From Patescibacteria group bacterium (GTDB taxonomy: Bacteria > Patescibacteriota > JABMPQ01 > JAQVVF01): DNA of 64,000 nucleotides. This document shows, piece after piece, positions 13,130 through 53,363 of this stretch. The notes below the pieces were generated by a model. That model was not told the DNA's origin. It saw nothing but the letters and a program-made list of their open reading frames with translations, and did no database searches. Position numbers and translations under genes: made by a program. Each line of letters opens with the position of its first letter. The stretch's first letter is position 1. The stretch covers positions 165,234 to 229,233 of the forward strand of contig JBAZSC010000002.1 of assembly GCA_041662665.1 (NCBI GenBank), written 5' to 3'.

Positions 13130-14188
13130 TTAGTCAACTTTCGCTGCTTTAATCAAGTCCCAAATTTTCTTTTCAATCATATTTGCAACTTTTGGATTAT
13201 CTCGCAAAAATTGTTTTGAAGCTTCTCTACCTTGACCCAATTGCGCTTTATCAAAAGTATACCAAGATCCAGACTTGCCCAAAACTTTGTAAACAACTCC
13301 AGTATCCAATAAATCACCAACTCTTGAGATTCCTTCATTATACATAATATCAAATTCTGTCGTCTGAAATGGCGGAGCAACTTTATTTTTAACAATTTTT
13401 ACTTTCACTCTATTTCCAATAATTTTATCATTCATTTTAATTTGAGCTGCTCTTCTTAATTCAATTCTCACTGAAGAATAAAATTTCAATGCTTTTCCAC
13501 CAGTTGTTTCTTCTGGATTGCCAAACATCACACCAATCTTCATTCTTATTTGATTCAAAAATATTACTGTTGTTTTTGAACTAGAAATTGCAGCTGTTAA
13601 TTTTCGAAGAGCTTGCGACATTAATCTTGCATGCAAACCCATATGAGAATCACCCATATCGCCTTCAATTTCTGCGCGCGGAGTCAAAGCTGCTACAGAA
13701 TCGATTACAATTACATCAACTGCGTTTGATCGAACAAGAGTTTCAACAATTTCCAAAGCTTGCTCGCCTGTTTCTGGCTGAGAAATTAGCATATCATTAA
13801 TATTAATGCCAATTTTTTTTGCATAATCAGGATCCAAAGCATGTTCAGCGTCAACAAATGCCGCTAATCCGCCTTTTTTCTGAATATTAGCAATGATATG
13901 TTGTGCCAAAGTCGTCTTGCCAGAACTTTCCATACCAAAGATCTCAATAATTCTTCCTCTTGGCACTCCGCCAATTCCCAAAGCAATATCCAAAGAAATT
14001 GATCCAGTAGTAATTGCATCAATTTGCATTGTCTTTACTTCTCCTAACTTCATTATCGCTCCTTCACCAAAACGATCCTTAATCTGATCAATCGCTGATT
14101 CCACAGCCTTTGCCTTTCCCTCCATCGCACTACTTTTTTTTGCATCTTTCGCCATAAAATTAAATTGTTTAATTACTAAATTGCTCAA
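13130..14188 (-). CDS. recA: Recombinase RecA
   Basis: The Walker A motif [13 protein letters not shown] is present, and RecA L1/L2-loop context is conserved throughout. Confidence 0.95.
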
Positions 14189-19082: not shown

Positions 19083-19162
19083 AGCGTAAACGAAGATGGA
19101 CTTGTTTTCAAAGAACATTTTCAATCAACAATATCATATTAATTTGATACTTACAATAAAAA

Positions 19163-19192
19163 ATAGAGGCACAAAATCTTGTGCCCCTAGAT
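19163..19192 (-). terminator. Intrinsic terminator hairpin, identical copy of the one at 20881..20910
   Basis: On the minus strand, a GGGGCACAA-GATT-TTGTGCC hairpin is followed by CTCTATTTTTT. Confidence 0.6.
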
Positions 19193-19237
19193 TAGAGATA
19201 GCATTCGAGAATCGTATTCGAGCTCGCATTAGAGAAA

Positions 19238-20794
19238 TCATTTCACCCCAATTGCAAAATACTGCGTCTTCGTTGGATATTTAGTGAAATACTTTACAAT
19301 GAATTTTCTGTTTTTCTTTATTACTTTAGCATCAGTAAATACTGTAGATATATTCTGCCAAGAACCACCTTTTTTCTTGTATTTCAAATAAAGATTTGAT
19401 GCTGTTGCTGATTTATTTTTCTTTAAAAATTTCTTTAATGCTTTCTTAGTATATTTGAATGTTACTTTAATTTTATATTTCTGTGATAACTTTTTTGCTT
19501 TGTATTTATATAGATTAGTCTTTAATTTCCAATTGCTTAAGAATGTCTTATTTGGATATTTGCTTAATTTATTCCATTGCATCCAATAAGCGCTGTTCTT
19601 TGTTAATTTTGTTGGAAGCTTGGTGAAATTGATAACTAGATTTTGGCCTGAAATTGTTTGTTGATTTAGAGCTGGCATCAACGTAACTTTGTCACCATTA
19701 ATCAAATTGTTCTCCTCTAAAAGCCTATCGTATTCTTTTTGCTCTTCAGCGCTTAAAGTGTATTTCCAGACCTTTCCGACATAACTTTCATCAGAATTAC
19801 TATCACCTCCAGCATAAATTGAACCATCTGAGACTTGAATCAAAGAATAAACATCAGACCCAGCCATTATTCCAGTAAAATCTGACCAAGAACCATTCGA
19901 ATATTTAGAAACTTTAGCATAAACACCATTACCACCTGCATAAATCGAACCATCTAAAGCCTGAGATAGAGAATAAACATGGGTCATATCCAGCGTACCA
20001 GTGATATCTGTCCAAGAATTATTTGAATATCTATAGACTTTAGCATAATTAGTAGAATAAAAACCACCTGAATAGCCACCAGCATAAATTGAACCATCTA
20101 TCGCCTGAAACAAAGATCGAACGTTAGACATATTTAATGTTCCAGTAACATCTGACCAAGAACCATTTGAATATTTAAAAACTTTACCATAATCATCACT
20201 ACCATCATAATAATGTCCTCCAGCATAAATTGAACTATCTGAAGCTTGAATCAAAGAAGTTACAACAGACATATTTGAAATTTCAGAGATACTGATCCAA
20301 GAACCATTTGAATATTTAAAAATTCTATCATCATAATTAAAACCATTATAGACATATCCACCAGCATAAATCGAACCATCTGAGGCTTGAAGTAAAGTAG
20401 TAACAAAAGACATATCCGATAATCCAGAAACATCAGTCCAAGAACCATTCGAATATTTATAGACTTTAGCAAGATAATCGCTAGCTAAAACATATCCGCC
20501 AACATAAATCGAACCGTCTGAGGCTTGAAGTAGAGAAGCTACATTAGACATATTTAATGTTCCAGTAATATCTGACCAAGAACCATTTGAATATTTAGAA
20601 ACTCTACCATAAAAATGGCTACCATCATCATAATTCCCACCGGCATAAATCGAACCATCTGAAGCATAAACCAAAGAATAAACTGTAGATATACTCAATG
20701 TCCCAGTAATATCTCCCCATTCAGCACTAGCAATTCCGCCTAATCCAAACAATAACCCCACGCAAAACAAACTTGTTAATAAAAACTTTCTCAT
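19238..20794 (-). CDS. Secreted beta-propeller repeat protein with the shared Lys-rich C-terminal module
   Basis: A signal peptide is followed by about eight repeats of roughly 45 aa (YSNGSW.D.TG...SLLQASDGSIYAGG). The C-terminal segment of about 150 aa is homologous to the C-termini of four other secreted proteins in this window. Confidence 0.7.
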   Translation of the reverse strand: MRKFLLTSLFCVGLLFGLGGIASAEWGDITGTLSISTVYSLVYASDGSIYAGGNYDDGSHFYGRVSKYSNGSWSDITGTLNMSNVASLLQASDGSIYVGGYVLASDYLAKVYKYSNGSWTDVSGLSDMSFVTTLLQASDGSIYAGGYVYNGFNYDDRIFKYSNGSWISISEISNMSVVTSLIQASDSSIYAGGHYYDGSDDYGKVFKYSNGSWSDVTGTLNMSNVRSLFQAIDGSIYAGGYSGGFYSTNYAKVYRYSNNSWTDITGTLDMTHVYSLSQALDGSIYAGGNGVYAKVSKYSNGSWSDFTGIMAGSDVYSLIQVSDGSIYAGGDSNSDESYVGKVWKYTLSAEEQKEYDRLLEENNLINGDKVTLMPALNQQTISGQNLVINFTKLPTKLTKNSAYWMQWNKLSKYPNKTFLSNWKLKTNLYKYKAKKLSQKYKIKVTFKYTKKALKKFLKKNKSATASNLYLKYKKKGGSWQNISTVFTDAKVIKKNRKFIVKYFTKYPTKTQYFAIGVK

Positions 20795-20880: not shown

Positions 20881-20910
20881 AATAGAGGCACAAAATCTTG
20901 TGCCCCTAAT
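20881..20910 (-). terminator. Intrinsic terminator downstream of rpoC
   Basis: This is the same 30-nt hairpin plus T-run as at 19163..19192. Confidence 0.6.
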
Positions 20911-20945
20911 ATCCGTAATTTCCTAATTTCTTGATATCCGAATAT

Positions 20946-25330: not shown

Positions 25331-28300
25331 CTATTTACGTTCGTACTTTTTTTCTTCAGTTTCAAGAATATTTCCATTTTTATCCAAAATTTCAACATTC
25401 AAAGCTAAGCTTTTTAATTCTTTAACTAAAACGCTGAATGATTCTGGAACATTTGGCTGTCTGATTGGTTCACCCTTAATAATCGCTTCATAAGTTTTTG
25501 AACGTCCAATAACATCATCTGATTTTATTGTTAACAATTCCTGTAACACATGAGAAGCGCCATAAGCCTCAATTGCCCAAACTTCCATTTCACCAAATCT
25601 TTGTCCACCAAATTGTGCTTTACCGCCTAATGGCTGTTGAGTAACTAATGAGTACGGCCCGATTGATCTTTGATGGATCTTATCTTCAACTAAGTGATAA
25701 AGTTTCAAGATATACATCACACCAACTGTTGTTTTTTCCGTAAATGCATTACCTGTTCTACCATCATAAAGTTGAACTTTGCCATTTTCTGGCCAGTTTG
25801 CTCTTTTTAATTCAGATTTAATTGTTTCTTCTTTTACACCATCCAAAACTGGAGTTGCAACTTTATAGCCTAATAATTTTGCCGCCATGCCTAAGTGAAC
25901 TTCCAAAATCTGACCTTGATTCATACGAGAAGGCACGCCTAATGGATTCAAAATAATATCAACTGTTCTTCCATCTGGCAAATATGGCATATCTTCCTGT
26001 GGAACAATCTTTGAGATAACACCTTTATTACCATGACGTCCAGCTAATTTATCGCCAACTTGAATTTTTCGAAGTTGTGCGACAGAAACTTGAATCGTCT
26101 TGATAACGCCAGTTGGCAATTTATCGCCTTTTTCTCTAGAAAATATTTTAACATCAACAACCTTACCATGTTCGCCATGTTGCAAATATAATGAAGTGTC
26201 TTTTACATCTCTAGCTTTTTCACCAAAGATCGCTCTTAATAATCGCTCTTCTGCTGTTAATTCAGTTTCACCTTTTGGTGTAATTTTACCTACCAAAATA
26301 TCACCTGAAGTAACTTGAGCTCCGACTCTAACAATTCCTTCTTCATCCAAATCTTTTAGTTTTTCTTCACCAACATTTGGAATATCGCGAGTAACTAATT
26401 CTGAACCTAATTTTGTATCACGAACATCAATCGAAAAATCCTCAATATGAATTGAGCTATAAACATCTTCGCGAACTAGTCTATCAGAAATCAACATCGC
26501 GTCTTCAAAATTTCCACCTTGCCATGCCATGAATGCAACTACAACATTTTTTCCTAAAGCTAATTCGCCTTTATCAGTTGAAGATCCATCAGCAATAATC
26601 TGACCCTTTTTTACTTTCTCACCAACTGAAACGATTGGTCTTTGATCAATACAAGTTGAAGTATTTGATCTTAAGAAATTTAATAATTTATATTCTCTAA
26701 TATTTTTATTAGCTTCCAATACTTTTATTCTTTTTCCAGATACTTCAATGATCTCTCCATCTTTTTTACAAACAATAACTACACCTGAATCTTTAGCAGC
26801 TCTCTCTTCACAACCAGTACCTACAATTGGTGAATCAGGATTAATACATGGCACAGCCTGACGTTGCATGTTTGAACCCATCAAAGCACGATTAGCATCA
26901 TCATGTTCCAAAAATGGAATCAAAGCTGTAGTAATAGATACAATTTGTTTTGGAGAAACATCCATATATTCGATTCTGCCTGTTGCTTCCATTGATGGCT
27001 CGCCTGCAACTCTAACTTCTGCTCTTTTATCAACAAAATAGCCTTTTTCATCAATTAAAATTGTTGCTGGAGCTGTCACATGTTTTTCTTCCTCAATTGC
27101 ATCTAGATATTCAATTTCATCAGTAACTCTTGATCTAATTTGAACTACTTTCAAACCAGCATTTTTAATTTTATTGATATCTTTTTTATCAAGAACTTTG
27201 TCAGCTGGAATAATCACTCTTCTTTTTTCATCTAGGATTCCAGATTTATAAGAAATCTCGCCGATTGCCTTTTCTGCTCTTTCAATTGGAATTTCTCTTA
27301 AAATCTTTCTATAAGGAGTTTCAATAAAACCATATTCATTAATTCTTGCATATGAAGAAAGATGGCCTACCAAACCAATGTTTGGACCTTCAGGAGTCGA
27401 AATAGGACAAATTCTGCCATAGTGAGTTCTGTGTACATCACGTACATCAAAACCAGCTCTTTCACGAGACAAACCTCCAGGACCCATTGCTGATAATCTT
27501 CTCTTATGTTCTAACTCGGATAATGGATTTGTTTGATCCATAAATTGAGAAAGTTGAGAAGACATGAAAAATTCTCGAATTGAAGAAATAACTGGTCTAG
27601 CATTAATCAATTGAGCTGGAGTAGAAGTATTAATATCCAAAGTACTCATTCTATCTCTAATGATTCTTTCCATTCTCATCAAACCAACTCTCATTTTATT
27701 TTGGACCAATTCACCAATCGCTCTAACTCTTCTATTTCCTAAATGATCAATATCATCAGGATTGCCTTGATTAATATTTAATTTAATTAATTCTTTTATA
27801 ACATTAACAAGATCTTCTTTTCTTAAAACTCTATTTTGCTTGTTAATAATAATTTTTTCACCTAATCTTTTGTTCATTTTGAAACGTCCAACTTTGCCAA
27901 AATCATATCTTTCAAAATTAAAAAACATTGCTTCAATCAATGATCTTGCATTATCCGCAGTTGCTAAATCTCCAGGTCTAATTCTTTTATATACTTCAAT
28001 AAAACCTTCAGCTTGATTTTTTGCAATATCTTTTTCTAATGTATTTTTGATAAATTTTCGATCAGGCAAAGTATCAACATCCTTGAATTGAGCCAAAATT
28101 TCAGAATCTGTGGAAAACCCAAAAGCCCTTAACAATGACGTTACAGGTACTTTTCTTTTGCGATCGATTTTTGCATAAATAACACTTTTTGAGTCAGTTT
28201 CAATTTCTATCCAAGCGCCTCTGTTTGGAATAATTTTTGCGCCAAATAATTTTTCGCCTTTTGTTAATTCAGCAGTAAAAAATACGCCAGGAGATCTAAT

Positions 28301-28696
28301 CAATTGAGAAACAACTACTCTTTCAACACCATTGATAATAAATGTGCCTCGATCAGTCATCAATGGAAATTCGCCTAAATATACTTCTTGTTCTTTTATT
28401 TCACCAGTTTGTTTATTAACTAATTGAACTTTGCAACGAACTGAAGCTTCATAAGTTGCATTTCTTGATTTTGCTGCAACTTCATCAACTTTTGGTTCAT
28501 CAATTACATAATCAACAAAACTTAATTCTAGATTTTTTTCAGTAAAATCTTTGATTGGAGAAATTTCATCAAACAATTCTCTCAAACCTTCTTTAAAAAA
28601 CCAATCATAAGAATCAGTTTGAACTCTGATTAAATCAGGAAGTTCAATAACATCATGCAATTTAGTAAAAAATTTTCTTTTTTGCTTTTGAGGCAT
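25331..28696 (-). CDS. rpoB: DNA-directed RNA polymerase subunit beta
   Basis: Conserved beta-subunit regions are present throughout. The ORF-track start at 28741 uses TTG and adds 15 hydrophobic residues. The ATG at 28696 ([10 protein letters not shown]...) is the more plausible start. Confidence 0.95.
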
Positions 28697-28744
28697 ACTA
28701 TAAAAAATTAATATATAATAACAAATACTAATCATTTGCAATTA

Positions 28745-28803
28745 AATCTGTATGCATCTGTGTCTCTGTATCAAATCCGTTATAAATCTGTGTAAAATTT
28801 GTG
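28745..28803. repeat. ATCTGTG tandem array in the rpoB upstream region
   Basis: The sequence is aatctgtatgcatctgtgtctctgtatcaaatccgttataaatctgtgtaaaatttgtg. Confidence 0.7.
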
Positions 28804-29023
28804 CGCTAAAGATAACAAAAAATGACCAAAAATTAACACTTTTGGCTTATTTAAAGTCTTTTATAAATATCACGCCCGAGGCTATTCACCTCTGCTTTGA
28901 ATATCATACTTCAAGTATAAGCGTTTTATTTAAAAAGTCAAGCTATTTTTAATTAAAAACAATATTTAGGCTTATCTAAAACAAAAATAAAGCTATCAAA
29001 TTTTCTTATCCACAACGACTTCT

Positions 29024-30253
29024 TTACATCAAAGCTGCAGTTAGAATATTTCTTAATTCCGTTAAACGACCCAGTTCTTCTTCATCTTTAGTCTTTCCAA
29101 TCTTCTTTTCTACCCCTTTTAATTCTTTTTTATATTTGCTTCTTACTCCTCTTTCTTTTTTGGATAATGTAAAAAAAGTTTTCAATTCTTTTCCTGTTCC
29201 CATCACTGAACCAGCAATTCCAGACAAACTAGTTTCTGCTAAATTTCTAGCACTTGCCAAAATTTTTGCCATATTAGCACTAGCTTTCTCCAATCCAGGC
29301 GTTTGTCTAAGCTGTTCAGCAGTATAACCCAATTCTCCAGCAATACTCCCAACATTATTAACAACCTTAACCAACCTGTTTTCAGCATCATGAGCTACCT
29401 GTTTTTCTTTCATAAATTGATCTCTTGACACATCATTAACTTTTTTTTCAAGTGATCCAGTATCTTCAGATGAGATTCTTTCATCTTCAACCATTTTAGC
29501 TAATTCCTCAAGTGTTGGTGGCTCTATATCATCATATTCTGCCTTCGGAACATTAGGTGCTGGCAATTTTGCCTCTTTTTTTGACACAGCTAAACCACCT
29601 TCAATCAATCCTTGTACGTCAACATACTCCTCTTCACCACGTATCTCTTTAGGTGTTGGTTCATCGATTTCAACCACACCTTCTCCTTCCTGCGAAGAAT
29701 CTGGCAATGTACGTTGTACATCAGCTCTGCGAGTAAATTCAGTTTCAGTAAAATTGCCGGTTTTTTCATCATATTCAGGCAGATCCGGTACTAAAACAAG
29801 CTCAGTCGGATCAAATTTTTCTAAGTCTGCTTCAGTTAATTCCATTTCATCTGTTTCTAAAGCAGGAGCTGCTTGAACTTTTTGTTCGCCATAAGCACCT
29901 TCCTTAACTGTTGGCACATCCTCAATATTTATTTCTTTTTGAGTCGGCGCTTCATAAATATCTTTCATTGCTTGATCAAGTTTATTGCTCCATTCAGCCC
30001 AGACTTTTTTTTCATCATCAGTTTCTGGCATTCTTGGCAAATCTTCTTTTTTAAATATTTCAACGCCTTGTAAACCAATTTGTTCAATTTGCGAATCCTC
30101 AACTTCTGGAATTACTTCTTCAGCTGTTACAGCTTCTTCAATTCCTGGTTTTATTTCTCTGCCTTTTTTGTCTATAGAAACTTTTTTAAATTCTGTTTCA
30201 CCAGCTGCTTTTCTTTGGACTTCTAACGCTTGCGCATTATCACCTTTTGCCAT
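29024..30253 (-). CDS. Acidic low-complexity protein of unknown function (paralog of 30739..31899)
   Basis: The 409-aa product is Glu/Asp-rich with no signal peptide. Its C-terminal block (GELGYTAEQL...GKELKTFFT) resembles that of 30739..31899 (ELGYGAVSAGENL...GKSLKSFFSG). Confidence 0.5.
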   Translation of the reverse strand: MAKGDNAQALEVQRKAAGETEFKKVSIDKKGREIKPGIEEAVTAEEVIPEVEDSQIEQIGLQGVEIFKKEDLPRMPETDDEKKVWAEWSNKLDQAMKDIYEAPTQKEINIEDVPTVKEGAYGEQKVQAAPALETDEMELTEADLEKFDPTELVLVPDLPEYDEKTGNFTETEFTRRADVQRTLPDSSQEGEGVVEIDEPTPKEIRGEEEYVDVQGLIEGGLAVSKKEAKLPAPNVPKAEYDDIEPPTLEELAKMVEDERISSEDTGSLEKKVNDVSRDQFMKEKQVAHDAENRLVKVVNNVGSIAGELGYTAEQLRQTPGLEKASANMAKILASARNLAETSLSGIAGSVMGTGKELKTFFTLSKKERGVRSKYKKELKGVEKKIGKTKDEEELGRLTELRNILTAALM

Positions 30254-30279
30254 ATTTTTAAAAAATTAATTTTTAATAA

Positions 30280-30669
30280 CTATTGGATTTGCTCTTTTAT
30301 TCTTTTTTTCTTGTCTTCTTCAACCAATTTTACTGCTTCTTGAAAAACATCATCTAGCCTTTTATCTAATTTCTCAATTCCTTTTTGATATTCGTCATTT
30401 GCATATTTCATCCTTTTCAACATTCTAAAATAAATCAAATCCAAAACTAATTTGTCTTGATGAATTTGAGTACCCAAACCTTCTTTAGTTTTTTCTTTGT
30501 CTTTAATTCCTTTTTGCACTTTTTTGATATGATTATCAATTGCTTTGATAATGCTATCTCGCACTTTTTTACTTAAACCTTCTGTTTCTATTTTTTTAAT
30601 CAAACTATTTTTCTCGCGAGTTGTTAAATCGGATTGCTTGATTAGTTCTATTGCTTTTTTTGTTTCCAT
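30280..30669 (-). CDS. Hypothetical coiled-coil protein
   Basis: The 129-aa product is Lys/Glu-rich and predicted helical. It lies between two paralogous acidic proteins on the same strand. Confidence 0.45.
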   Translation of the reverse strand: METKKAIELIKQSDLTTREKNSLIKKIETEGLSKKVRDSIIKAIDNHIKKVQKGIKDKEKTKEGLGTQIHQDKLVLDLIYFRMLKRMKYANDEYQKGIEKLDKRLDDVFQEAVKLVEEDKKKRIKEQIQ

Positions 30670-30738
30670 ATTTTTGTATTTAAAAGATTAAATAATTAAG
30701 CTTGTCCACCAGAGTCTCCCGCAGAAGACGCAGGTACA

Positions 30739-31899
30739 TTATTCACCAAATTTTGCTCTTAATTCTTTAAAACGAACTTCTTGCGCTTTTAATTTTTCAT
30801 ATTCTCTTCTTTCCATTTTTTCTTTTGCAGATCCTACTAATACTTTTGCTTGTTCCTTTTTAAATCTTTCCCATTCCGCTATTTTCCTTTTCGTTCTAGC
30901 AATTTCAATTGGAAAATCAGTTGCCATTTCTTTATATGCTTTAACAGCCTCTTCAGAAACCGTTCTTAATCCTGAATCCATTCTTTTCATTGCTATTTTT
31001 GGCAAATTTTCTCCAGCCGAAACAGCACCATATCCTAATTCAGTCATAGTTTTACCAAAAGAAGTTAAAGTATTTTTTACAGGACCGCTAAAAAAACTTT
31101 TTAATGATTTACCTGCCTTATCTAATCTATCTTTTGCAAATCTTGTTAAGCTCTCTACTCTTTGCCTGCCCAATTCAGTATCCCAAATTTGATCTTCTTC
31201 TGCTTTTTTTACTAAAGCTAATCTCTCTGTATCTCTAACAAGAGTATCGGTATTATATATAACAGTATCAACATCTTCGCCACTTGGATTAACCAATGCT
31301 AAATCCAAAGCTGTTTCAACTCTTTGCCAATCGCTATCAAATTGTGCGTCAAATTCAGGATCTAAAAATTGCTCATTATTTCCAGCATTTAAAATCTCTA
31401 AAACCTCAGCTGTAGCTACTTCTTGTCCAGTATCTTTTTTGAGCTCTCTGACCATTTGAGCTAAAACATCTTCTTCTGGAAGTCCTTCCTCGAGTGAAGA
31501 TTTTGGAGGCTCAACTTTTGGAAGCTCAATTGTCTGAGCGCTTTCGATTTGCTTATGTGCGGCAGCCCTTCTCAAAGAAGCTTTTTCTTCTTCTGTTGCT
31601 CCACCTTTTTCAGTTTGAGTAATTTTATGTTCTGCTTTTACACCAGTAGTTGTTATTGGTTGACCATTTTCATCAACTTCTTTAACATCTTTATCAGCTA
31701 CTTCAGTTCCTTGTGCTTCTGGCAACGTTGGTGCAGTTTCCTCTTTAATTGTTGGCGCACCAATCTCAGCAACTGTTGGCGCTTCTTCAATCACAACGCC
31801 CTTGCCACTTTTTCCTTTTTTTCTCGCAGATCTCGATTTTCCTTTATAAAAAGCTTCCTGTTCTTTTGGATTTGGCACATCAATACTTTTTCTTGCCAT
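30739..31899 (-). CDS. Acidic low-complexity protein of unknown function (paralog of 29024..30253)
   Basis: The 386-aa product has PT/E-rich repeats (APTVAEIGAPTIKEETAPTLPEAQ) and a C-terminal block shared with 29024..30253. Confidence 0.5.
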   Translation of the reverse strand: MARKSIDVPNPKEQEAFYKGKSRSARKKGKSGKGVVIEEAPTVAEIGAPTIKEETAPTLPEAQGTEVADKDVKEVDENGQPITTTGVKAEHKITQTEKGGATEEEKASLRRAAAHKQIESAQTIELPKVEPPKSSLEEGLPEEDVLAQMVRELKKDTGQEVATAEVLEILNAGNNEQFLDPEFDAQFDSDWQRVETALDLALVNPSGEDVDTVIYNTDTLVRDTERLALVKKAEEDQIWDTELGRQRVESLTRFAKDRLDKAGKSLKSFFSGPVKNTLTSFGKTMTELGYGAVSAGENLPKIAMKRMDSGLRTVSEEAVKAYKEMATDFPIEIARTKRKIAEWERFKKEQAKVLVGSAKEKMERREYEKLKAQEVRFKELRAKFGE

Positions 31900-31968
31900 A
31901 AATTTTAATTTTATTTTTTAACAAAAACTACCAATAATTAAGTATAGCACAAAATAACAAGTTTCGCA

Positions 31969-32649
31969 TTATTTTTTTGGTTTTGTAATATGCGGTTCTC
32001 TTAAATAATACGGCATAACAACTTCATTTTGTTCTTTATTATTTAATTTTTCTTCTCCAATTTTTAACAAATTTTCCAGAATATCTTGATCAAAATCATC
32101 TTTAATCTTTATATCTAGAACTTTATTTTTCAATTTTTCTCTAATTATTTTTTCTTTTTCTGAATTTATTTGTCCAATAAAATAAGTTGGCAAAGTTATT
32201 TTTTCACACAACTGCTCAACAGTGCAAACGTATCTTTCTGTTTTCTGTTTCCTGTTTCCTGTTAACAATAGTTCTACATAAATCAAATCACTAATATTTT
32301 CTAAAATTGTAACAACATTATTCAAAACTCCATCGTTCTGACGTTCTAACGCTCCGACGTTCTGACGCTCCATTACTTCAAATCTATCCACACCCACAAC
32401 CTTGCAATTAAAACCAAAAGCCAAAGCATTCGCAGTAGCAACACCAACGCGCAATCCAGTATAAGATCCAGGCCCAATCACTACAATAATTCCGTCAATT
32501 TTATTATTTCCAACTATTTTTTTAATAATTGGCAATAATTCTTCAGATTGCCGAAAATTTGCTTCCCAAATTTTCTTCCTTATAATCTTATTTTGGTCAG
32601 CCAATCCGACAAAAGAAATATAAGTAGCTGTATTTATTAATAATATCAT
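31969..32649 (-). CDS. tsaB: tRNA threonylcarbamoyladenosine biosynthesis protein TsaB (YeaZ-like) with in-frame repeat insertions
   Basis: The N-terminus LLINTATYISFVGL...IIVVIGPGSYTGLRVGVATANALAFG fits TsaB. Internal repeats tctgttttctgtttcctgtttcctgtt and cgttctgacgttctaacgctccgacgttctgacgctcc encode VMERQNVGALERQNDGV. Confidence 0.75.
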   Translation of the reverse strand: MILLINTATYISFVGLADQNKIIRKKIWEANFRQSEELLPIIKKIVGNNKIDGIIVVIGPGSYTGLRVGVATANALAFGFNCKVVGVDRFEVMERQNVGALERQNDGVLNNVVTILENISDLIYVELLLTGNRKQKTERYVCTVEQLCEKITLPTYFIGQINSEKEKIIREKLKNKVLDIKIKDDFDQDILENLLKIGEEKLNNKEQNEVVMPYYLREPHITKPKK

Positions 32650-32737
32650 TTTAAAAAAATAAATTTTATGCTATATTTTCTATATCTAAGTTCAATTTTA
32701 TGAACTTTAAAAACTTTATAACTTTATAACTAATAAC

Positions 32738-33193
32738 ATGCTTATCATCCCAAAAGTACTTATTATTGCACTTGCATCAGGCGTTGTTGTACAAATCATC
32801 AAAGCTTGCATCATGTCTTGGCAAAACAAAGAAATTTTTAATTTTCATTATCTCTCTCGTTATGGCGGCATGCCTTCAACTCATTCTGCATTTCTAGCAT
32901 CTTTATCATCTGCAGTCTTTCTTGAAGACGGCTTTGCATCTACCTCTTTTGCCATCTGCTTAATTTTTTCTATTATTATAATCAGAGATGCCTTTGGTTT
33001 TAGAATGCTTTTGGAAAATCAAGGTAAAACATTAAAGAAAATGATTGATAATAACGAGAAAGAATTCAAAGAAATTGAAAAATACGATCGATACAAAACT
33101 TTAGGCTTGCGTGTCGGCCACACTTTACCAGAAATTATTGTTGGAACAATGATTGGAATCCTTGTTACCTTGTCTTTATTCTTTATAATCTAG
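32738..33193 (+). CDS. Divergent PAP2-family membrane protein (PF02681-like)
   Basis: The GGMPSTHSA motif is present, with four TM helices in a 151-aa product. Confidence 0.7.
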   Translation: MLIIPKVLIIALASGVVVQIIKACIMSWQNKEIFNFHYLSRYGGMPSTHSAFLASLSSAVFLEDGFASTSFAICLIFSIIIIRDAFGFRMLLENQGKTLKKMIDNNEKEFKEIEKYDRYKTLGLRVGHTLPEIIVGTMIGILVTLSLFFII

Positions 33194-33194
33194 A

Positions 33195-33340
33195 CTCAAA
33201 ACTCTAAATCCTAAATTCTAAATCCTAAACAAACTCAAAACCCAAATATCCAAATTCCAAAAACTCCGAAGTGCACTTTTGAATTTTATATTTTAGTTAT
33301 TTAAATTTGTTTAGAATTTAGAATTTAGTGCTTAGAATTT
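33195..33340. repeat. AT-rich imperfect palindrome of CTAAATCCTAAATTC / GAATTTAGAATTTAG units between convergent genes
   Basis: ctaaatcctaaattctaaatcctaaac ... gtttagaatttagaatttagtgcttagaatttt. Confidence 0.6.
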
Positions 33341-34731
33341 TAACGACTTAGGATTTTTTCCAATTCTTCTCTCACAACTACCCTGTCATCCCACGCAATT
33401 CCTTTTCCACTTCCAACTGGTCCAGTCATTATCATTTGCTCGCAACCTTTTCCAGTTATCAAAACCACATCGCCCTTCTGGGCTTTTTTTATTGCCAAAG
33501 CAATGGCATCTCGTCGATTCAAAATTTTAAATAAATTCTCATTCAATCGTTTTGGTTTAGCATTCGAAAAAGTATTTGATTTATTCGAAAAAGAATTTGA
33601 GTGATTCAACACGCCTGCCACAACATCATCGATAATGGTCTTCGGGTCATCATCATAAGGATCTTCATTCGTCACAATCACAATGTCAGCATATTTTGCA
33701 GCTAGTGCTCCTAGCTTTGGTCTTCTTGCCACATCACGTCCTCCACCAGTTGATCCTAAAACAGAAATTATCCGTCCCCGAGTACCTAAAAAACTAAGTA
33801 ACTTAGTAACTGCTTGATAAACATTTTCTAAAGCATTTGGCTCAAATGCATAATCAACAATTACTTTAAAATCTTGTCCTTCTTCAATAAACTCCATTTT
33901 GCCTAAATGCAATTTTACTTTTTTCAAAATATTTGCGCAATCTTCAAGTTTCATTTTATATAATGAACAAACCGCAATTGCAGACAACGCATTATAAACA
34001 TTATACTCACCTAACATATTCAAACTAAAATCAATGTCATTATTTATATTCGAAACTTCACATTTTGAATTCATTTGACATTTCGGATTTAAAATTTGAA
34101 ACTTTACTTGCAATCCTTCTGTTTTAATATTAACTGCTCTAAAATTGCAATTTTCATTTTTAATTCCAAATGTTAATTTTTCTCTAACTAAAAAATCCAA
34201 AAATTCAGGCGCATATTTGCTATCTGCATTTGCGACAATTTTATTTTTTACAACTTTGAAAAATTTTAATTTTGCTTTTTTATAATTCTCAAATCCACCA
34301 TGCGCTTCAACATGTTCTGAAAATAAATTTGTAAAAACTCCGCAATCAAAATCAATGCCTTTATGACGATATTGTTCAATTCCTTGCGAAGTTACTTCAA
34401 TAATACAAAATTTACAGCCTTCTTTAACAGCTTCTTTCAAAAATTTTTGTGTTTTAAATCTGCCAAGCATTGTCTGTTTGTACTTGCTGATCCATTCTTT
34501 ATCGCCAATTGCAAAATTTGATGTTGACATCATCGCGCATTTTTTTCCAGATTTTTGTAAAATTTGATAAATTAAATTGCATGTTGTTGTCTTACCAGTT
34601 GTGCCAGTTACTCCAATTACTGTCAATTTTTTTGATGAATGACCATACAAAAAAGCAGCTAAACCAGCCAAAACAAAATGATAAGCTCTCAAAATCGGCT
34701 TTGGAATAATTTTTCTTAAAATATTCATCAT
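33340..34731 (-). CDS. Mur ligase family protein (MurE-like)
   Basis: The motif VIGVTGTTGKTTT is a Mur-ligase P-loop. The C-terminus TNEDPYDDDPKTIIDDV...DRRDAIALAIKKAQKGDVVLITGKGCEQ is MurE-like. An in-frame tandem repeat is inserted (HSNSFSNKSNTFSN). Confidence 0.7.
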   Translation of the reverse strand: MMNILRKIIPKPILRAYHFVLAGLAAFLYGHSSKKLTVIGVTGTTGKTTTCNLIYQILQKSGKKCAMMSTSNFAIGDKEWISKYKQTMLGRFKTQKFLKEAVKEGCKFCIIEVTSQGIEQYRHKGIDFDCGVFTNLFSEHVEAHGGFENYKKAKLKFFKVVKNKIVANADSKYAPEFLDFLVREKLTFGIKNENCNFRAVNIKTEGLQVKFQILNPKCQMNSKCEVSNINNDIDFSLNMLGEYNVYNALSAIAVCSLYKMKLEDCANILKKVKLHLGKMEFIEEGQDFKVIVDYAFEPNALENVYQAVTKLLSFLGTRGRIISVLGSTGGGRDVARRPKLGALAAKYADIVIVTNEDPYDDDPKTIIDDVVAGVLNHSNSFSNKSNTFSNAKPKRLNENLFKILNRRDAIALAIKKAQKGDVVLITGKGCEQMIMTGPVGSGKGIAWDDRVVVREELEKILSR

Positions 34732-34845
34732 ACATCTAAAATAACATAGAAAACGTCTTTTTTCAACTTAGCCAAAAAAAATACGGCTAAACATTTTAGC
34801 CGTATTAGAGATTTATTCGTCGTATTAGAGACTTTATTAGAGAAA

Positions 34846-36897
34846 TTACTTCACGCCAATCGTCAGCAATGTGTCTTTCTGTTTAAAATATCTGAAATCA
34901 GTTGCAAATGTATTTTTCTTAGTCTTCTGTTTTGTATTCGCTATCAATTTCAACTTGTTAGCATTGATCCAAGTCTTAGTTCCTTTGTCATAGATTTTTA
35001 ACCATAACTTCTTTTCAGCTTGTTTTTTCGTTAGCTTCTTTAAAACAGAATTCTTCAGTCTCAATTTATTCACCAATTTAGTAGTATAGTAAAACTTTAT
35101 TCTTACCTTAAACATTTTATTCTGATATTTTACTACCTTCTTTTTGTAAGTCTTCAATTTCGCACTACTACAACTCAAACTGTTATAGCAATCCGCATAA
35201 TTGCTTTCAGCATTTATCAATTTTTTTCTATAAGCTTTTCTATATGTATAAAGATTTGTTCTAACTTTCCAATATCTTTTAATCGTATTTGATTTGTATT
35301 TTGGATATTTTTTATTATATTTTTTGTATCTAAAAGTCTGCAACCAATACCTAGTTGGATCATTAGGAACTTCTTTCCAAGTATAAACTAAATCATAATT
35401 AACTATTTCTTGACCAATAATATCCTCTGTTACAGTTCGCCTTTCAGATTCACCAGTTTCCTCTTCGGCAGCTGATTCAGTTAAAGCAGTTGATATTGTA
35501 TTGCCTGCCCAATCTGACACTCTGAAATATATTGTTTTAACAGTTGAACTCGAAGCAGGATATATACGATCAGTAAAAGTTTCTGAAGTCAAAGCTGTTC
35601 CTATTCCAGCTGTCAAAGGATTGCAAGTATCATTTTCATCAATGCAATAATACTTTGCTCCACCCATTTTTGCATAATCAGATGCCGACATTTTATAACT
35701 AAATTCAGCTCCTGCCTTGCCAGTTAAAGCAACAGTTGCAGTTGGAATAACAGAATCAAGTAAAACTAAATTTTGATTATCATTACCAGTGGAATAATCT
35801 GATATAAAATAATTTTCATTACCATTTATCATTGATGTGTTTGTATTGCCCGCATCCATAGATTCTATTACTGTATCGCTAATTCCAGCAGAGCTATTTG
35901 TAGCATAATTTAAAAAATAGGCTGAAGTATAAGAAGAATGAGAAATATGAGAATAATTTTGACTATCTAATACAATCGATGGTGCTCCACCAATTCCAGT
36001 ACTATTGCAAGTATAAGATTCTGAAGTAAAACCGCTCACACTGCCAGCAGCAACTTTCAAACAAAACGTTGAGCCATTGTAATAAAAATAACCAATTCTT
36101 ACAACATTATCGCTTCCGATAGAAATACTATTATTTTTATACAAAAAATGACTTAGCGCAATAGTAGTAGCAACAGCAACATCCAGCGACCATGACCCAT
36201 TCGCATGCAATTGAATATATCTAATAGCTGCAGTACTTCCTCTATAATATGAAATATGAATATTATCAGATGAATCAACAACCGCCGATATATCCCATCC
36301 ATTATTTCCTGAAACAGCTGCATTTTCTGTAATCCAACTGTCACCACTTAAATATGCATGTTTTACATAACTAGTACCAGCATCAAAAACTTTTTGATAA
36401 AAAACATGGGGAGTACCATTTGAAGTTAAAACTATTGATGTATGATAACCTGTATCGCCATCAGCGTCAGCCGTCCAAACAGAAGACCACGAACCACCAG
36501 TATTTTTATAAACGTACAAATTTGAATCCGATTGAAAACTAATCCAAATATTATTATTAGACTTGTCTATCGCAATCGAACAATATTTTCCGAAATCAAC
36601 AAACAATGAACGCCCAACAACTTCAACTTGCCAAGCAGTTCCATCCCAATATGCATGTTTCAATCCATGATATGTCCCATCCTCATAATACGAACAAAGA
36701 TGAGGATAATCATTACTATCAAGAGCGATAAATCTATCACCAAAATAATCCTTGGCATCACCAACTACGTCTGCAAAAGTCACCTTTCCACTTTCATTCG
36801 TTTGCGTCACTGCCTTCGCTTGATTTGTATTAGCAATCATTCCAAATGCAAAGAAAATTGCTAAAAAACAAAGTAAAGACAATACTTTTTTCTTCAT
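34846..36897 (-). CDS. Secreted repeat protein with the shared Lys-rich C-terminal module
   Basis: A signal peptide is followed by W-containing beta-propeller-like repeats, a CHB_HEX_C-like segment (TVKTIYFRVSDWAGN), and a C-terminus homologous to the other four secreted proteins (RYWKVRTNLYTYRK...TIGVK). Confidence 0.65.
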   Translation of the reverse strand: MKKKVLSLLCFLAIFFAFGMIANTNQAKAVTQTNESGKVTFADVVGDAKDYFGDRFIALDSNDYPHLCSYYEDGTYHGLKHAYWDGTAWQVEVVGRSLFVDFGKYCSIAIDKSNNNIWISFQSDSNLYVYKNTGGSWSSVWTADADGDTGYHTSIVLTSNGTPHVFYQKVFDAGTSYVKHAYLSGDSWITENAAVSGNNGWDISAVVDSSDNIHISYYRGSTAAIRYIQLHANGSWSLDVAVATTIALSHFLYKNNSISIGSDNVVRIGYFYYNGSTFCLKVAAGSVSGFTSESYTCNSTGIGGAPSIVLDSQNYSHISHSSYTSAYFLNYATNSSAGISDTVIESMDAGNTNTSMINGNENYFISDYSTGNDNQNLVLLDSVIPTATVALTGKAGAEFSYKMSASDYAKMGGAKYYCIDENDTCNPLTAGIGTALTSETFTDRIYPASSSTVKTIYFRVSDWAGNTISTALTESAAEEETGESERRTVTEDIIGQEIVNYDLVYTWKEVPNDPTRYWLQTFRYKKYNKKYPKYKSNTIKRYWKVRTNLYTYRKAYRKKLINAESNYADCYNSLSCSSAKLKTYKKKVVKYQNKMFKVRIKFYYTTKLVNKLRLKNSVLKKLTKKQAEKKLWLKIYDKGTKTWINANKLKLIANTKQKTKKNTFATDFRYFKQKDTLLTIGVK

Positions 36898-41396: not shown

Positions 41397-43373
41397 TCAT
41401 TTGCGGGAAGCTAAAGTAAACCAGTTTTTCATTTTTGAAAAAAATCTGATATCTGTCGACAATAATTTTTGATTTTTTTTCAAAATAGTTTTGTTCCTTT
41501 TATTCCAAAAATTTATATAACTTTCTTCTTTCGAAAATAATTCCAAATTTTTTGCTTTTATCTTAGATTTTTTTATACTTTTTTTTGTATATGGAAAAGA
41601 AATTTTTACTCTAAACTTTCCAGAACTTTTTTTATACAAATTTGTCCTCAATTTCCAATAATATTTTAATGATTTTTCATTCTCCAAAAAATTAGGCTTT
41701 TTCTTTACTTTTTCAATTTGTATCCAAAATTTTTCTGGAGTTTCAGGCAAATTCAAAAACTTTATTCCAACTCCTGTTTTACTAGAAATATATTTTATAC
41801 CCAAAGAATCGTCATTAAATTTAATATATTTTTTAAAATATTTAATTGCAATTTTTGACAAAGATCCAATGCTCGCTTCAGGTTCGTCAGCTGTATATTT
41901 CCTATCGCCAAAAAGTTTTATCATCCAATCATTATCAGAATCACCAGTTGAAAAGCCAGCTAAAACGAAATCATCATTTTGATTAAAATCGATATCTAAA
42001 TATGCCTCGTCATTGCTTTCATCTTCTACAATTTCTTTCAACAAATTTCCATCACTATCATATTTCCTAACCAATAAATCATTGCCTGTTTCTGCTTTTG
42101 AATTTCCAACAACCATTATTTCATCAGCAATATTAACTTCCATTCCATACAAATAATCGTTTCCTAATTCGCTATCATACAACCTATCCCACAATAAATT
42201 TCCTTCAGAATCTAATTTTCGAAGCAACCAATTATTATCTGTTTCATTATAATATCCGCCTAAATAAATGTTATCATTTGAATCTACATTAACTGCTTTA
42301 AAATAATCAGCAGTTCCTTTTTCATAATTAGAATTCCAATCTTCAACTAAATTATTATCATATTTTATTGTATAAAATTCAAAGCTTGAAGCAGTCGCAC
42401 TGTTTCCAGTTGCAATAATATTATTTCCTGAATCAACCACTAAATCATACAAAATATCATCACCAAGTCCAGAATTATATTCTTGATCAGTTATGACATT
42501 ACCATTTGCGTCATATTTTCTAAGATACCAATTCTTATCAGAATTTATTTTTAATCCTCCAACAATAATATTATCATCAGAATCAGTTATTACCGCATTT
42601 GCTTCGTCGATATTTCCTGAATCATAAATTTTACTCCACAAAATATTGCCATCAGAATCATATTTTCTAAGATACCAATCTTTATCGCCTAATAATTCAT
42701 AATAACCAATAACAATAATGTTATCCGATTTATCAATTGCCAAATCTTTAACCTCGCCATTATCAAAATCAAAAGTATCTGACCAAATTTCCTCTCCATC
42801 GTTATTGTATTTTATTAATCGCCAATCATTGCCATCAGCTTCATTAATATAATTTCCAGCTATAACAAATTCACCAGTTGATAAAAATTTTACGCCTTTC
42901 GCTTGATCATTGCCATTTCCACTATCATAATTTTTAACAAAAAAATTGACTGGCTCTAGTTCCATTGTTTCATTATATGAACTTGCTAAAACAGCTTCTG
43001 AATTTCCAAAATAAAGATAAATTGTCTTATTGCTATTTGCCAAAAGTTCTGACACTTCCACCCAAATAATTGCCGAATTTTCTTCATAATCAAATTCTTT
43101 CAGCCAAAAATCAAGATCTGTTGAATCATCAGCATCAACTAATCTAATATCTGATCCATCACTTTTTATCCTTGCCCAAAAATCAACTTGTTCGTCTGTC
43201 AAAGTTATTTTTACTTGATAATTGCTCAGGTTTTCTGAATTTAAAGAATTTTCCAAAACAATTGGCATTCGATAATCATAATCATTACTATACCAAGCCG
43301 AAGCCGAATTAGAAATAACAAAATAACAAAATAACAAAATAACAAAAATCGCCCCAATTAAAATTCGTTTCAT
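41397..43373 (-). CDS. Secreted SBBP-type beta-propeller repeat protein with a DUF2341-like N-terminal domain and the shared C-terminal module
   Basis: A signal peptide/TM is followed by six or more repeats of the form KDWYLRKYDSDGNILWSKIYDSG...DNIIVGG, which fit the SBBP motif. The C-terminus KYYWKLRTNLYKK... matches the family. Confidence 0.7.
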   Translation of the reverse strand: MKRILIGAIFVILLFCYFVISNSASAWYSNDYDYRMPIVLENSLNSENLSNYQVKITLTDEQVDFWARIKSDGSDIRLVDADDSTDLDFWLKEFDYEENSAIIWVEVSELLANSNKTIYLYFGNSEAVLASSYNETMELEPVNFFVKNYDSGNGNDQAKGVKFLSTGEFVIAGNYINEADGNDWRLIKYNNDGEEIWSDTFDFDNGEVKDLAIDKSDNIIVIGYYELLGDKDWYLRKYDSDGNILWSKIYDSGNIDEANAVITDSDDNIIVGGLKINSDKNWYLRKYDANGNVITDQEYNSGLGDDILYDLVVDSGNNIIATGNSATASSFEFYTIKYDNNLVEDWNSNYEKGTADYFKAVNVDSNDNIYLGGYYNETDNNWLLRKLDSEGNLLWDRLYDSELGNDYLYGMEVNIADEIMVVGNSKAETGNDLLVRKYDSDGNLLKEIVEDESNDEAYLDIDFNQNDDFVLAGFSTGDSDNDWMIKLFGDRKYTADEPEASIGSLSKIAIKYFKKYIKFNDDSLGIKYISSKTGVGIKFLNLPETPEKFWIQIEKVKKKPNFLENEKSLKYYWKLRTNLYKKSSGKFRVKISFPYTKKSIKKSKIKAKNLELFSKEESYINFWNKRNKTILKKNQKLLSTDIRFFSKMKNWFTLASRK

Positions 43374-44528: not shown

Positions 44529-44632
44529 AAATATTTATTAATTAATTTAACTAATCTAACTGGTCAAACAAATTTAACTCGTCAATTTTACTAATTTTAC
44601 CAATTTTACTAAATAATCAATATCCGAATATC

Positions 44633-45220
44633 TTAATATCTCGAATATTCACATCCGCAGTAACGCTGTCTATAAATTCCATTTAATTTACACAACTCAA
44701 TACTTCTTTTATATAATCCGCTAAAATCTTGTTCCAAAAATTTCACTCCATATTTCTTTTCTAATTCAAGACCGATTCTATTTATCATCATTGTATTCTT
44801 GTATGGCGAAATAGACAAGGTCGTTCCAAACATTTCAAAGCCATTCAACATCGCAAATTCTGCTGTTTTTTCTAATCTGAATTTAATGCAAGCCTCGCAT
44901 CTTTTTCCGCCTTCCTTTTCTTTTTCTAAACCAACAACTTTTTTTTGCCAATTCTTAACATCATTTTTCGGAACAGCGAATTTTAGTTTATCAATTTTAG
45001 CATTATCAATTTTACTTATTTTACTAATTTTACTAACATTATTAATTTTACCAATTTTACTCGCAAGTTTATTCAAATTCTCTAATCTTAAATCATATTC
45101 GCTTTTTGGATAAATATTTGGATTATAAAAATAGCCAGTAATTTCATAATCTGGTTTTATTTTTTCTAAAACTGCACTCGCACATGGGCCGCAGCAAATA
45201 TGTAATAATAATCTTGTCAT
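44633..45220 (-). CDS. queH: Epoxyqueuosine reductase QueH (DUF208)
   Basis: The motifs LLLHICCGPCAS...YFYNPNIYPKSEY and the C-terminal CGCEYS are present. An in-frame tandem repeat encodes NNVSKISKISKIDNAKIDKL. Confidence 0.8.
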   Translation of the reverse strand: MTRLLLHICCGPCASAVLEKIKPDYEITGYFYNPNIYPKSEYDLRLENLNKLASKIGKINNVSKISKISKIDNAKIDKLKFAVPKNDVKNWQKKVVGLEKEKEGGKRCEACIKFRLEKTAEFAMLNGFEMFGTTLSISPYKNTMMINRIGLELEKKYGVKFLEQDFSGLYKRSIELCKLNGIYRQRYCGCEYSRY

Positions 45221-45349
45221 AATTACTGCATTATATTCTAAAAAATATAAATGTCAAAAAACACAATAAAAACATAGAGACGTTGCAATGCAACGTCTCT
45301 ACCATATTCGAAAATAATTAGAATTTAATTCGAAAATTAATTCGAATAA

Positions 45350-48124: not shown

Positions 48125-48215
48125 ATATAAACATTTAACAATTAACTATTAACATTTAACTTTACAAACTTTAAGAACTTTATAACTAGTCTAATTTGTC
48201 TAACCTATCTAACTC
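48125..48215. repeat. Composite repeat module (ATTTAACAATT, AACTTTAAGAACTTTATAACT, AGTCTAATTTGTCTAACCTATCTAACTCG)
   Basis: This is a paralogous arrangement to 14225-14330. Confidence 0.65.
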
Positions 48216-49302: not shown

Positions 49303-49321
49303 TTTTACAAACGTTAGGTTT

Positions 49322-53280: not shown

Positions 53281-53308
53281 CAAGGCGTTAATTTCAGCCT
53301 TGTTTTTT
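53281..53308 (+). terminator. Rho-independent terminator after rpsT
   Basis: A hairpin CAAGGC-N10-GCCTTG is followed by TTTTTT. Confidence 0.6.
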
Positions 53309-53360: not shown

Positions 53361-53363
53361 TTT

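Follow-up and report, generated by a model that had tools for sequence, protein, structure and literature searches.

In-frame tandem-repeat inserts in housekeeping genes of a Patescibacteria genome and their relation to intergenic repeats

We here analyse a stretch of 64,000 nucleotides from the genome of a Patescibacteria group bacterium (GCA_041662665.1, contig JBAZSC010000002.1, positions 165,234 to 229,233), which we refer to as the window. We found that six conserved genes in the window, encoding TsaB, a MurE-like Mur ligase, QueH, a FemAB-family transferase, UvrB and PolA, contain short repeat arrays that encode low-complexity inserts in frame. Several of these arrays belong to repeat families that also populate the spacers between the genes. 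The inserts are located in variable loops of the proteins and differ between sister species. We propose, with a probability of roughly 0.7, that the repeats enter genes by slippage or by copying between loci, survive in permissive loops and are then turned over.

The window belongs to a contig of 258 kb and has a G+C content of 31%, and the minus strand holds most of its genes. The six genes were identified by Pfam (TsaD/TsaB, Mur_ligase_M+C, QueH, FemAB, UvrB and DNA_pol_A). For comparison, we used two sister species that are syntenic with the window, species A (GCA_964574655.1) and species B (GCA_028699085.1), whose UvrB proteins are each 87% identical to that of the window; more distant relatives were also fetched (fetched loci are given as L numbers). 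Arrays were located with Tandem Repeats Finder (TRF), and degenerate stretches were detected as motif clusters in comparison to 200 dinucleotide shuffles. Because AT-rich 8-mers coincide by chance, we dropped raw 8-mer sharing and used a clustered-hit statistic together with the motif-cluster shuffles.

Repeat arrays within and between the genes

An earlier note on this DNA had reported in-frame repeat stretches in the six genes. The arrays or motif clusters and the translations agree with this report, and all of the peptides quoted in the note were located and are in frame. Three sites come in addition to those listed there, which are a second site in the Mur ligase, another one in UvrB and one in a signal peptide. 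The in-gene inserts are 33-84 bp long, and the TRF periods of the arrays discussed here are 7-12 bp, mostly 7, 8 or 9. The encoded peptides are enriched in S, N, K, I, Q and R. Over the whole window, we detected 32 coding tandem arrays compared to 9.1 +/- 3.4 after codon shuffling. The array density is approximately six-fold higher between genes (3.5/kb) than in coding sequence (0.56/kb).

In the TsaB gene (31969-32649, minus strand), the insert ERQNVGALERQNDGVL (32323-32370) is located in the linker between the two TsaB domains. It is encoded by about five 8-bp units (GGAGCGTC/AGAACGTC), which TRF reports as 4.2 copies of the 8-mer CGTTCTGA at 32334-32371. As the units are 8 bp long, three of them make up one 8-aa period of the peptide. 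Species A has about ten units and species B about four, and the array is absent or short in the more distant species C. In a further relative (L093), this site is occupied by a different insert. The second TsaB array, LTGNRKQKTER (32233-32265), consists of 3.7 copies of the 7-bp unit GAAACAG (CTGTTTC in TRF, 32238-32263) and falls in a predicted beta-hairpin turn. This array is 7-periodic and less homogeneous in species A, 4 aa shorter in species B, and has no intergenic counterpart within the window.

The gene for the MurE-like ligase (33340-34731, minus strand) has an insert in the C-terminal domain, NHSNSFSNKSNTFSNAK (33556-33606), with a 21-bp period in 2.2 copies (TRF: 33562-33607). The array is found in the window and in species A and B, and it consists of clear TCTCGAAT/TCTCTAAT units in the two sister species, with 6 additional amino acids in species A. 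The second site, AVTKLLSFLGTR (33778-33813), lies between the middle and the C-terminal domains and contains four copies of the 8-bp unit AGTTACTN (TRF: 33781-33811).

QueH (44633-45220, minus strand) contains the insert ASKIGKINNVSKISKISKIDNAKIDKLK (44981-45064), which is built from 9-bp units (NGTAAAATT) and makes the protein 21 aa longer than its orthologues in species A and B. TRF divides the region 44979-45061 into a 15-mer followed by six copies of the 9-mer AATTTTACT. In the closest relative (P0071, L092), QueH contains at this position an array that is built from these units and is 18 aa long. With regard to target-site duplications, ATAAACT was noted by eye on both sides of the QueH insert, where it is indistinguishable from the repeat itself, and no such flanks are evident at the other sites. 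As a separate observation, the QueH open reading frame (ORF) of P0071 does not stop at its usual end but continues for 25 aa into a palindromic array on the 3' side (ATTKTQKLTKTQKEEKNFVSL; L092 1300-1440), and this C-terminal extension appears from its sequence to be a former intergenic array.

The insert of the FemAB-family transferase (gene 48205-49278, minus strand) is PKFQIPNSKQITNYKTQITN (48982-49041) with the 7-bp units TTCCAAA/TTACAAA, for which TRF reports the 7-mers TTTGTAA/TTTGGAA at 48983-49045. The array is 5 aa longer in the window than in species A. The FemAB orthologue of species A furthermore includes, within the coding sequence, an AATATCCG-type 8-mer array in 4.8 copies (L012 7976-8016) that encodes RYSDIGDIKN and leaves the length the same as in the window. 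It thus seems that a repeat family is able to overwrite coding sequence without an indel.

UvrB (50836-52902) is encoded on the plus strand. The first UvrB insert, IRDSLEKKYSSNIRE (51532-51576), contains three ATTMGAGA motifs, is located in the UvrA-interaction domain and adds 6 aa in comparison to species A and B. The second, KQNSRSHSSNSRLNSG (52075-52122), is composed of degenerate ATTCGAGA-type units of 9-12 bp and is located between the motifs SATPxxYE and VEQIIRPTG. The PolA insert ISRILLESDFSNKSLM (62122-62169), which lies directly before the QVHDE motif, contains four TCTCKAAT units; the polymerase part of this gene (61939-63999, minus strand) is truncated by the window edge. The stretches uvrB 52075-52122 and polA 62122-62169 were not scored by TRF at a score of 30. 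They are motif clusters and not clean tandem repeats.

The additional site in a signal peptide is a perfect 8-bp array, TGTTATTT in 4.4 copies (43311-43349, minus strand; TRF 43313-43347, 100% match, score 70). It encodes IFVILLFCYFVIS, which forms the hydrophobic core of the signal peptide in a surface-type DUF2341 protein of 658 aa (gene 41397-43373). Species B has three imperfect units at this place and species A a degenerate version.

Most spacers of the window carry arrays, which belong to about a dozen families of repeat units. These intergenic arrays are positioned in the interval between stop codon and terminator hairpin (e.g. 34804-34845 and 45303-45349) or immediately upstream of start codons. 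We tested eleven motifs, of which ten are 2.4- to 12.5-fold above the shuffle expectation and one is not; all eleven are present at several loci.

It had been suggested in the earlier note that the genes contain the same kinds of repeats as the spacers, and that the TsaB and FemAB families recur between genes. Both recurrences were found. The TsaB array matches one arm of an intergenic palindrome (59763-59831) in 35 of 39 nt. This palindrome is made of inverted arrays, with four copies of GTCGGAAN followed by their inverse (GTCGGAA / ACGTTCCG in TRF, 59766-59831), and is predicted to form an RNA hairpin of -42.6 kcal/mol (z = -5.8). The FemAB 7-mers match an intergenic TTTGTAA/TTTGGAA array directly after a terminator hairpin (53303-53361; TRF 53313-53361). 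For QueH, an array of the 9-mer AATTTTACY is present in the 3' untranslated region of queH (44584-44610) and has the 19-mer AGTAAAATTGGTAAAATTA in common with the QueH insert; further copies of this 9-mer type are found at 10972-11003 and 49279-49310. The similarity between genic and intergenic arrays is significant (p <= 0.015) for the first UvrB insert and for those of TsaB, QueH and FemAB, and by exact 8-mers it is not for the Mur, polA and second uvrB inserts.

A degenerate motif connects further sites. We observed five same-strand clusters of ATTMGAGA in the window, compared to 0.005 expected from the shuffles. Two of them are intergenic, one between the stop codon of gene 34846-36897 and its terminator hairpin (array 34804-34845, hairpin 34806-34780) and the other at 19191-19237. 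The remaining clusters are located in uvrB (51532 and 52082) and polA (62123). The ATTMGAGA family ties both UvrB inserts and the PolA insert to intergenic arrays, and in the sister species it ties the Mur insert to them as well.

The copies of a family are nearly always co-oriented in the window (ATCTGTRT 16:1, AATWTCCG 11:1, ATTMGAGA clusters 5:0). As this co-orientation persists where the host genes are on opposite strands (uvrB compared to polA and mur), the polarity seems to be linked to the chromosome and not to transcription. Four intergenic inverted arrays form long hairpins (z -5.8 to -6.9). The in-gene arrays have a single orientation and no significant fold (TsaB z = 0.2, FemAB z = -1.1); palindromy is restricted to some of the intergenic copies. 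TTTGGAA-like heptamer units turn up again in distant genomes.

Other features of the window were noted alongside the arrays. An element of ~90 nt with two GC-rich hairpins (GACCACCGGCATCGGTGGC ... CACCGCTGCCTGTGGC) is conserved at ~59835-59930 and ~55140-55230 and is also present in the sister genomes (L012 ~13870-13960 and two copies in L013); it might represent a terminator module or a small RNA. A search of the arrays and the adjoining conserved elements against Rfam gave no match to these, and a tRNA-Leu was the sole hit. The same terminator hairpin, AATAGAGGCACAAAATCTTGTGCCCCTA, follows two different genes (19130-19165 and 20885-20915), each time beside a short-unit array. The segment 54408-59709, which includes a 1317-aa gene (55371-59324) and has a G+C content of 0.38, is missing from the syntenic regions of species A and B and is probably an inserted segment. 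Finally, a 141-bp (47-aa) tandem repeat in 5.6 copies (19928-20714, minus strand) within the 518-aa ORF of gene 19238-20794 is a repeat of a protein-level domain and thus of a different kind from the short-unit arrays.

Variation between species and position in the protein

Across 22 orthologous genes (8808 aa), internal indels of at least 3 aa are present at 15 sites, and eight of these sites are the arrays described here. When the six genes are compared to species A and B, insert residues are 29.6% identical and 33.6% gapped; for the remainder of the proteins, the values are 84.5% and 0.2%. Where the length of an array differs between species, it does so by a multiple of 3 bp in every case. 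With respect to conservation across lineages, the QueH insert is missing from species A and B and from two other relatives. Among the three species, only the window has the first UvrB insert and the PolA insert, the latter of which exceeds species A and B by 8-10 aa. The window shares the second UvrB insert with species A, whereas species B is without it. For TsaB, Mur and FemAB, the number of units varies, and more distant homologues and all solved structures are without the inserts. The intergenic arrays vary as well, as orthologous slots contain different families in the window, species A and species B; for instance, the slot orthologous to 59763-59831 has a diverged copy in species A and a different family in species B. 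This suggests that turnover is fast relative to the 80-90% protein identity between the species.

Between nearly identical genomes, we observed a different picture. Over 27730-35390 (7.7 kb), a region that includes the TsaB and Mur arrays, three assemblies obtained from other samples match the window with 100% identity, and no array change was found in two pairs of species B contigs at 99.3-100% identity. In a collection of 15 billion proteins, each of the six window proteins is represented by a single sequence, with a fragment (54 aa) and a further version of the Mur ligase (462 aa) as the only exceptions, and the inserts have no length variants there. The only polymorphism that we saw involves two species B contigs that are 89% identical: one (L007) has a 36+9-bp array of the TsaB-type 8-mer (ATCGGAACGTCAGAAAATCGGAAA) at the second Mur site and the other (L006) does not. 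The expectation of the earlier note that the inserts differ between strains is thus supported for species and divergent strains, and the close strains compared here have identical arrays. We conclude that the inserts vary at the level of species and are at most putative as hypermutable strain markers.

The strain comparison also bears on whether the arrays are contingency loci, where 7- and 8-bp units would slip often and thereby switch genes (phase variation) or generate strain-specific variants. In favour of this reading, neither 7-bp nor 8-bp units are divisible by three, and the perfect array at 43313-43347 has the architecture of a slipped-strand phase-variation switch. A similar architecture is known from the opa genes of Neisseria, which have repeat tracts in the region of the signal peptide. 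However, the genes considered here provide essential, single-copy housekeeping functions, and the arrays of TsaB, Mur, QueH and FemAB are imperfect (TRF match 74-94%), whereas those of uvrB and polA are unscored. Furthermore, no length variant was found among near-identical assemblies (3-5 sampled), and the interspecies differences all come in multiples of 3 bp. We therefore consider phase variation very improbable.

It could also be argued that the inserts are artefacts, resulting from mis-assembly or pseudogenes, or that they are bypassed or spliced and thus outside the final protein. The source is a metagenome-assembled genome (MAG), and assemblers can be confused by short repeats. Nevertheless, the identical 7.7 kb comes from three independent assemblies, and the sister genomes have related arrays at the same sites. 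All nine in-gene arrays are in frame and free of stop codons, which disfavours bypass and splicing, since segments that are removed need neither property. Translational bypass was rejected on these grounds, together with the interspecies length differences in multiples of three. An artefact is thus hardly credible.

We next compared the position of the inserts to protein structures. Inserts in structurally essential elements would be difficult to reconcile with tolerated loops; instead, every insert falls in an alignment gap between secondary-structure elements. The match of TsaB to YeaZ/TsaB structures stops at residue 94-95, where the insert starts, and the QueH insert corresponds to a gap in the alignment with QueH of T. 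maritima (7lc5). For PolA, 11 residues are unmatched in comparison to Taq polymerase (4xiu). In UvrB, both sites are gapped compared to the solved structure, the first one with a 9-residue gap to chain 9gy7_E. The FemAB insert amounts to ~12 extra residues compared to S. aureus FemX (6snr), and ~20 residues of the insert in the Mur C-terminal domain are unmatched in T. maritima MurE (4bub). AlphaFold models of two proteins have low confidence at the inserts: the TsaB model has a mean predicted local distance difference test (pLDDT) score of 87.6, with averages of 57-63 in the 10-residue blocks from 91 to 110, and the QueH model has a mean of 81.5, with residues 60-76 modelled as coil at pLDDT <50. 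These results are in line with the expectation of surface loops and support the interpretation of the earlier note that the inserts are variable loops added to conserved enzymes.

Proposed slippage, copying and selection of the repeats

To explain the presence of the arrays in genes, we consider a sequence of steps. Replication slippage would enlarge a small seed that already existed within the gene, or a family member at another place on the chromosome would supply the sequence, through ectopic gene conversion or template switching. Selection would then retain the copies that are in frame and without stop codons at permissive places, namely linkers between domains, loops at the surface and turns of hairpins; the hydrophobic core of one signal peptide would come from a T-rich unit. 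An established array would subsequently gain and lose units and be homogenised against its relatives, so that the low-complexity peptide would change much faster than the remaining protein. We assume that the inserts are essentially neutral passengers, that is, selfish or junk DNA translated into tolerated loops, and not functional modules. The molecular mechanism of the copying and the neutrality of the peptides are inferred here.

The reading frames of the arrays are informative for the selection step. Where a family was detected by TRF both in genes and between them (three families), its intergenic arrays are open in 3-5 of the six frames. Eight intergenic arrays lack an open frame, and these have no counterpart within a gene. 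We also considered whether arrays with 7- and 8-bp units leave every frame of the coding strand open and rejected this, as only 1-2 of the three are open, with the exception of the signal-peptide array.

Is slippage alone sufficient? In a purely local scenario, each array grew from its own codon seed, nothing moved between loci, and the likeness to intergenic arrays is convergence in an AT-rich genome. There are observations in agreement with this scenario. The QueH proteins of relatives without the insert already encode two units, xKIxKIN, at the site, which suggests slippage from a seed. In addition, the 7-mer array of TsaB has no intergenic counterpart and its 7-periodic version in species A resembles a precursor, and AT-rich 8-mers are widely common by chance.

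Other comparisons point to copying. In species A, the array within FemAB and an intergenic segment ~4.5 kb away, after a terminator, are identical in 48 of 51 nt, including a non-periodic part. The alignment score between the FemAB and intergenic arrays is 87 in species A and 70 in the window, whereas the orthologous FemAB arrays score 50 against each other. The right-hand part that the two members of the window pair have in common differs from that of the species A pair, so that the pairs of the two species differ in parallel. Similarly, the TsaB array of the window scores 58 against the intergenic array of the window and 47 against the orthologous TsaB arrays of species A or B. A genic array can thus be nearer to an intergenic array of its own genome than to its orthologue, which suggests copying between loci in addition to local slippage. 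The TsaB 8-mer (GGAGCGTC/GGAACGTC) is GC-rich and hence not explained by composition, and it recurs at the intergenic palindrome and in the Mur gene of species B. The excess of ATTMGAGA clusters also argues against convergence, and the compound unit ATTCGAGATCGCATTCGT is common to uvrB of the window and an intergenic array of species A. We therefore consider purely local slippage unlikely.

Alternatively, the arrays might be functional cis-elements of DNA or RNA that serve, for instance, in the binding of a nucleoid or RNA-binding protein, transcript stabilisation, recombination or DNA uptake. They would then be selected within genes as nucleic acid, with the peptides as a by-product. Their defined positions next to stop and start codons would fit such a function, as would the strong hairpins of the inverted arrays (z about -6), the co-orientation on the chromosome and the similar heptamers in distant genomes. 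Furthermore, orthologous intergenic slots retain a hairpin while the family changes. Yet about a dozen unrelated families are present within 64 kb, and orthologous sites show gain, loss and replacement of arrays when species of 80-90% protein identity are compared. The in-gene copies are missing from sister species that have the same essential genes, and they are single-oriented and unstructured. A role as cis-elements thus appears quite improbable. The more specific reading as DNA uptake sequences was rejected, as there are many families instead of one motif.

We continue to favour entry by slippage or copying followed by filtering and turnover, and several observations weigh against it. When exact 8-mers are used, no intergenic array is significantly similar to the window's inserts in Mur and polA or to its second one in uvrB, and these are tied to intergenic arrays only via the degenerate motif. 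The similarity within genomes comes from a few short, low-complexity sequences, among which only the FemAB pair of species A appears really strong. The copying may have been from intergenic DNA into genes or the reverse. As array lengths are constant among the near-identical genomes (3-5 assemblies), the process would be slow or episodic, and active slippage is putative. Lastly, neither the co-orientation nor the recurrence of TTTGGAA-like heptamers in distant genomes is predicted by a purely neutral junk model.

The UvrB linker and related repeat systems

We found that one of the sites is occupied by repeats in many lineages. The flanking motifs were located in 79 UvrB orthologues (the window and 78 fetched loci). 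In 69 of these, the segment from SATP to RPTG is 15-20 aa long, and it is 32-59 aa long in the window, species A and eight other MAGs. The long linkers contain unrelated repeats, including CAAATTC heptamers that encode NSKFQINSKLQIPN, a palindrome initiated by GTCATTGCGAG, GAATTAAGA 9-mers and a 14-mer. For instance, such inserts are found at ~9799-9886 of L043 and 11210-11278 of L042 (among L012-L091). The CAAATTC heptamers in the linkers of L043 and L085 encode FQI(P)NSK peptides, as in the FemAB insert of the window. Since the same linker has unrelated repeats in eight other genomes, it is a hot spot across lineages.

With regard to the GTCATTGCGAG 11-mer, we observed it in seven of 92 fetched loci: repeatedly in L021 (2422, 2562, 11213 and 11233) and L042 (11210 and 11268), and as single matches in L033, L045, L058, L086 and L087. 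It opens a palindromic element (continuing ..GCGAAGCAATCT) that is in frame within uvrB of L042 and L021, with peptides such as VIARSEATKQS and RFARNDN. The density of arrays peaks in the window, species A, species B and a few other low-GC loci, and is approximately ten-fold lower in the sister lineage C (L010).

The unexplained co-orientation and the heptamers in distant genomes lead us to keep a further reading open, namely that Patescibacteria, or ultra-small genomes more generally, contain undescribed mobile modules of short tandem repeats. These would spread between loci and perhaps between genomes with a fixed polarity and would repeatedly colonise the same linkers in essential proteins, such as the SATP-to-RPTG linker of UvrB and the one between the TsaB domains. 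We regard such modules as a tentative and rather unlikely explanation. If true, they would imply a mechanism for targeting or copying, or a function at the level of the nucleic acid that makes coding sequence their habitat.

The arrays share properties with several known systems. Rickettsia palindromic elements are selfish repeats that are located between genes and in frame within unrelated housekeeping genes, where the encoded peptide is compatible with the protein fold (PMC10969869). Similarly, the window contains dispersed copies of the same families in both locations (the 7-, 8- and 9-mer families and ATTMGAGA), and its inserts are in frame in unrelated housekeeping genes at fold-compatible positions. 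In contrast, the Rickettsia elements are discrete palindromes of ~150 bp with a conserved peptide, whereas the arrays of the window are 30-85 bp long, have units of 7-12 bp and lack fixed ends. Furthermore, the in-gene arrays vary in unit number, are single-oriented and unstructured, and belong to a different host phylum, the Patescibacteria.

A second comparison is to the short tandemly repeated repetitive sequences of cyanobacteria, which comprise several families of ~7 bp tandem repeats, are dispersed between genes, can form hairpins and possibly affect transcript stability (PMC2670836). The window resembles them in its short-unit arrays, the presence of several families at many intergenic loci and the hairpins formed by inverted arrays. 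The cyanobacterial repeats differ in being intergenic in filamentous cyanobacteria, whereas the host here belongs to the Patescibacteria, and the units of the window are not known to be related to the cyanobacterial heptamers. To our knowledge, descriptions of these sequences do not include housekeeping genes that are systematically occupied in frame. Repetitive extragenic palindromes and bacterial interspersed mosaic elements (REP/BIME) and MITE-type repeats (miniature inverted-repeat transposable elements) lie dispersed near gene ends and terminators, have hairpin potential and are occasionally fused in frame to ORFs (PMC10969869). Unlike these, the arrays of the window consist of very short units instead of one conserved module and have no recognised terminal inverted repeats or target-site duplications.

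The inserts themselves are most reminiscent of those in the AT-rich genome of Plasmodium falciparum, where poorly conserved, N/K/S/I-rich inserts are located between the conserved blocks of essential enzymes and are presumably surface loops made by slippage. The inserts of the window are likewise biased in composition, poorly conserved and placed between conserved blocks. The Plasmodium inserts are mostly codon-level repeats (trinucleotide or homopolymeric amino-acid repeats) without matching intergenic families, whereas the units of the window are 7-12 bp long and common to intergenic arrays. For the Patescibacteria or Candidate Phyla Radiation (CPR), we found nothing relevant in the literature on tandem repeats or in-frame repeats.

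CPR genomes of ~1 Mb are streamlined and usually regarded as stripped of junk. In contrast to this picture, most spacers and several essential genes of the window carry families of tiny tandem repeats, and these repeats account for about half of the protein length changes of at least 3 aa in comparison to the two sister species. As the inserts are loops derived from repeats rather than new domains, they affect the alignment, modelling and annotation of CPR proteins. The inserts are furthermore natural markers of permissive sites in essential enzymes and markers that separate species. The UvrB hot spot makes it directly testable whether repeats are tolerated at this site or targeted to it across lineages. 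Thus, the repeats described here are a tractable case for studying how minimal genomes come to retain DNA that is selfish or prone to slippage.

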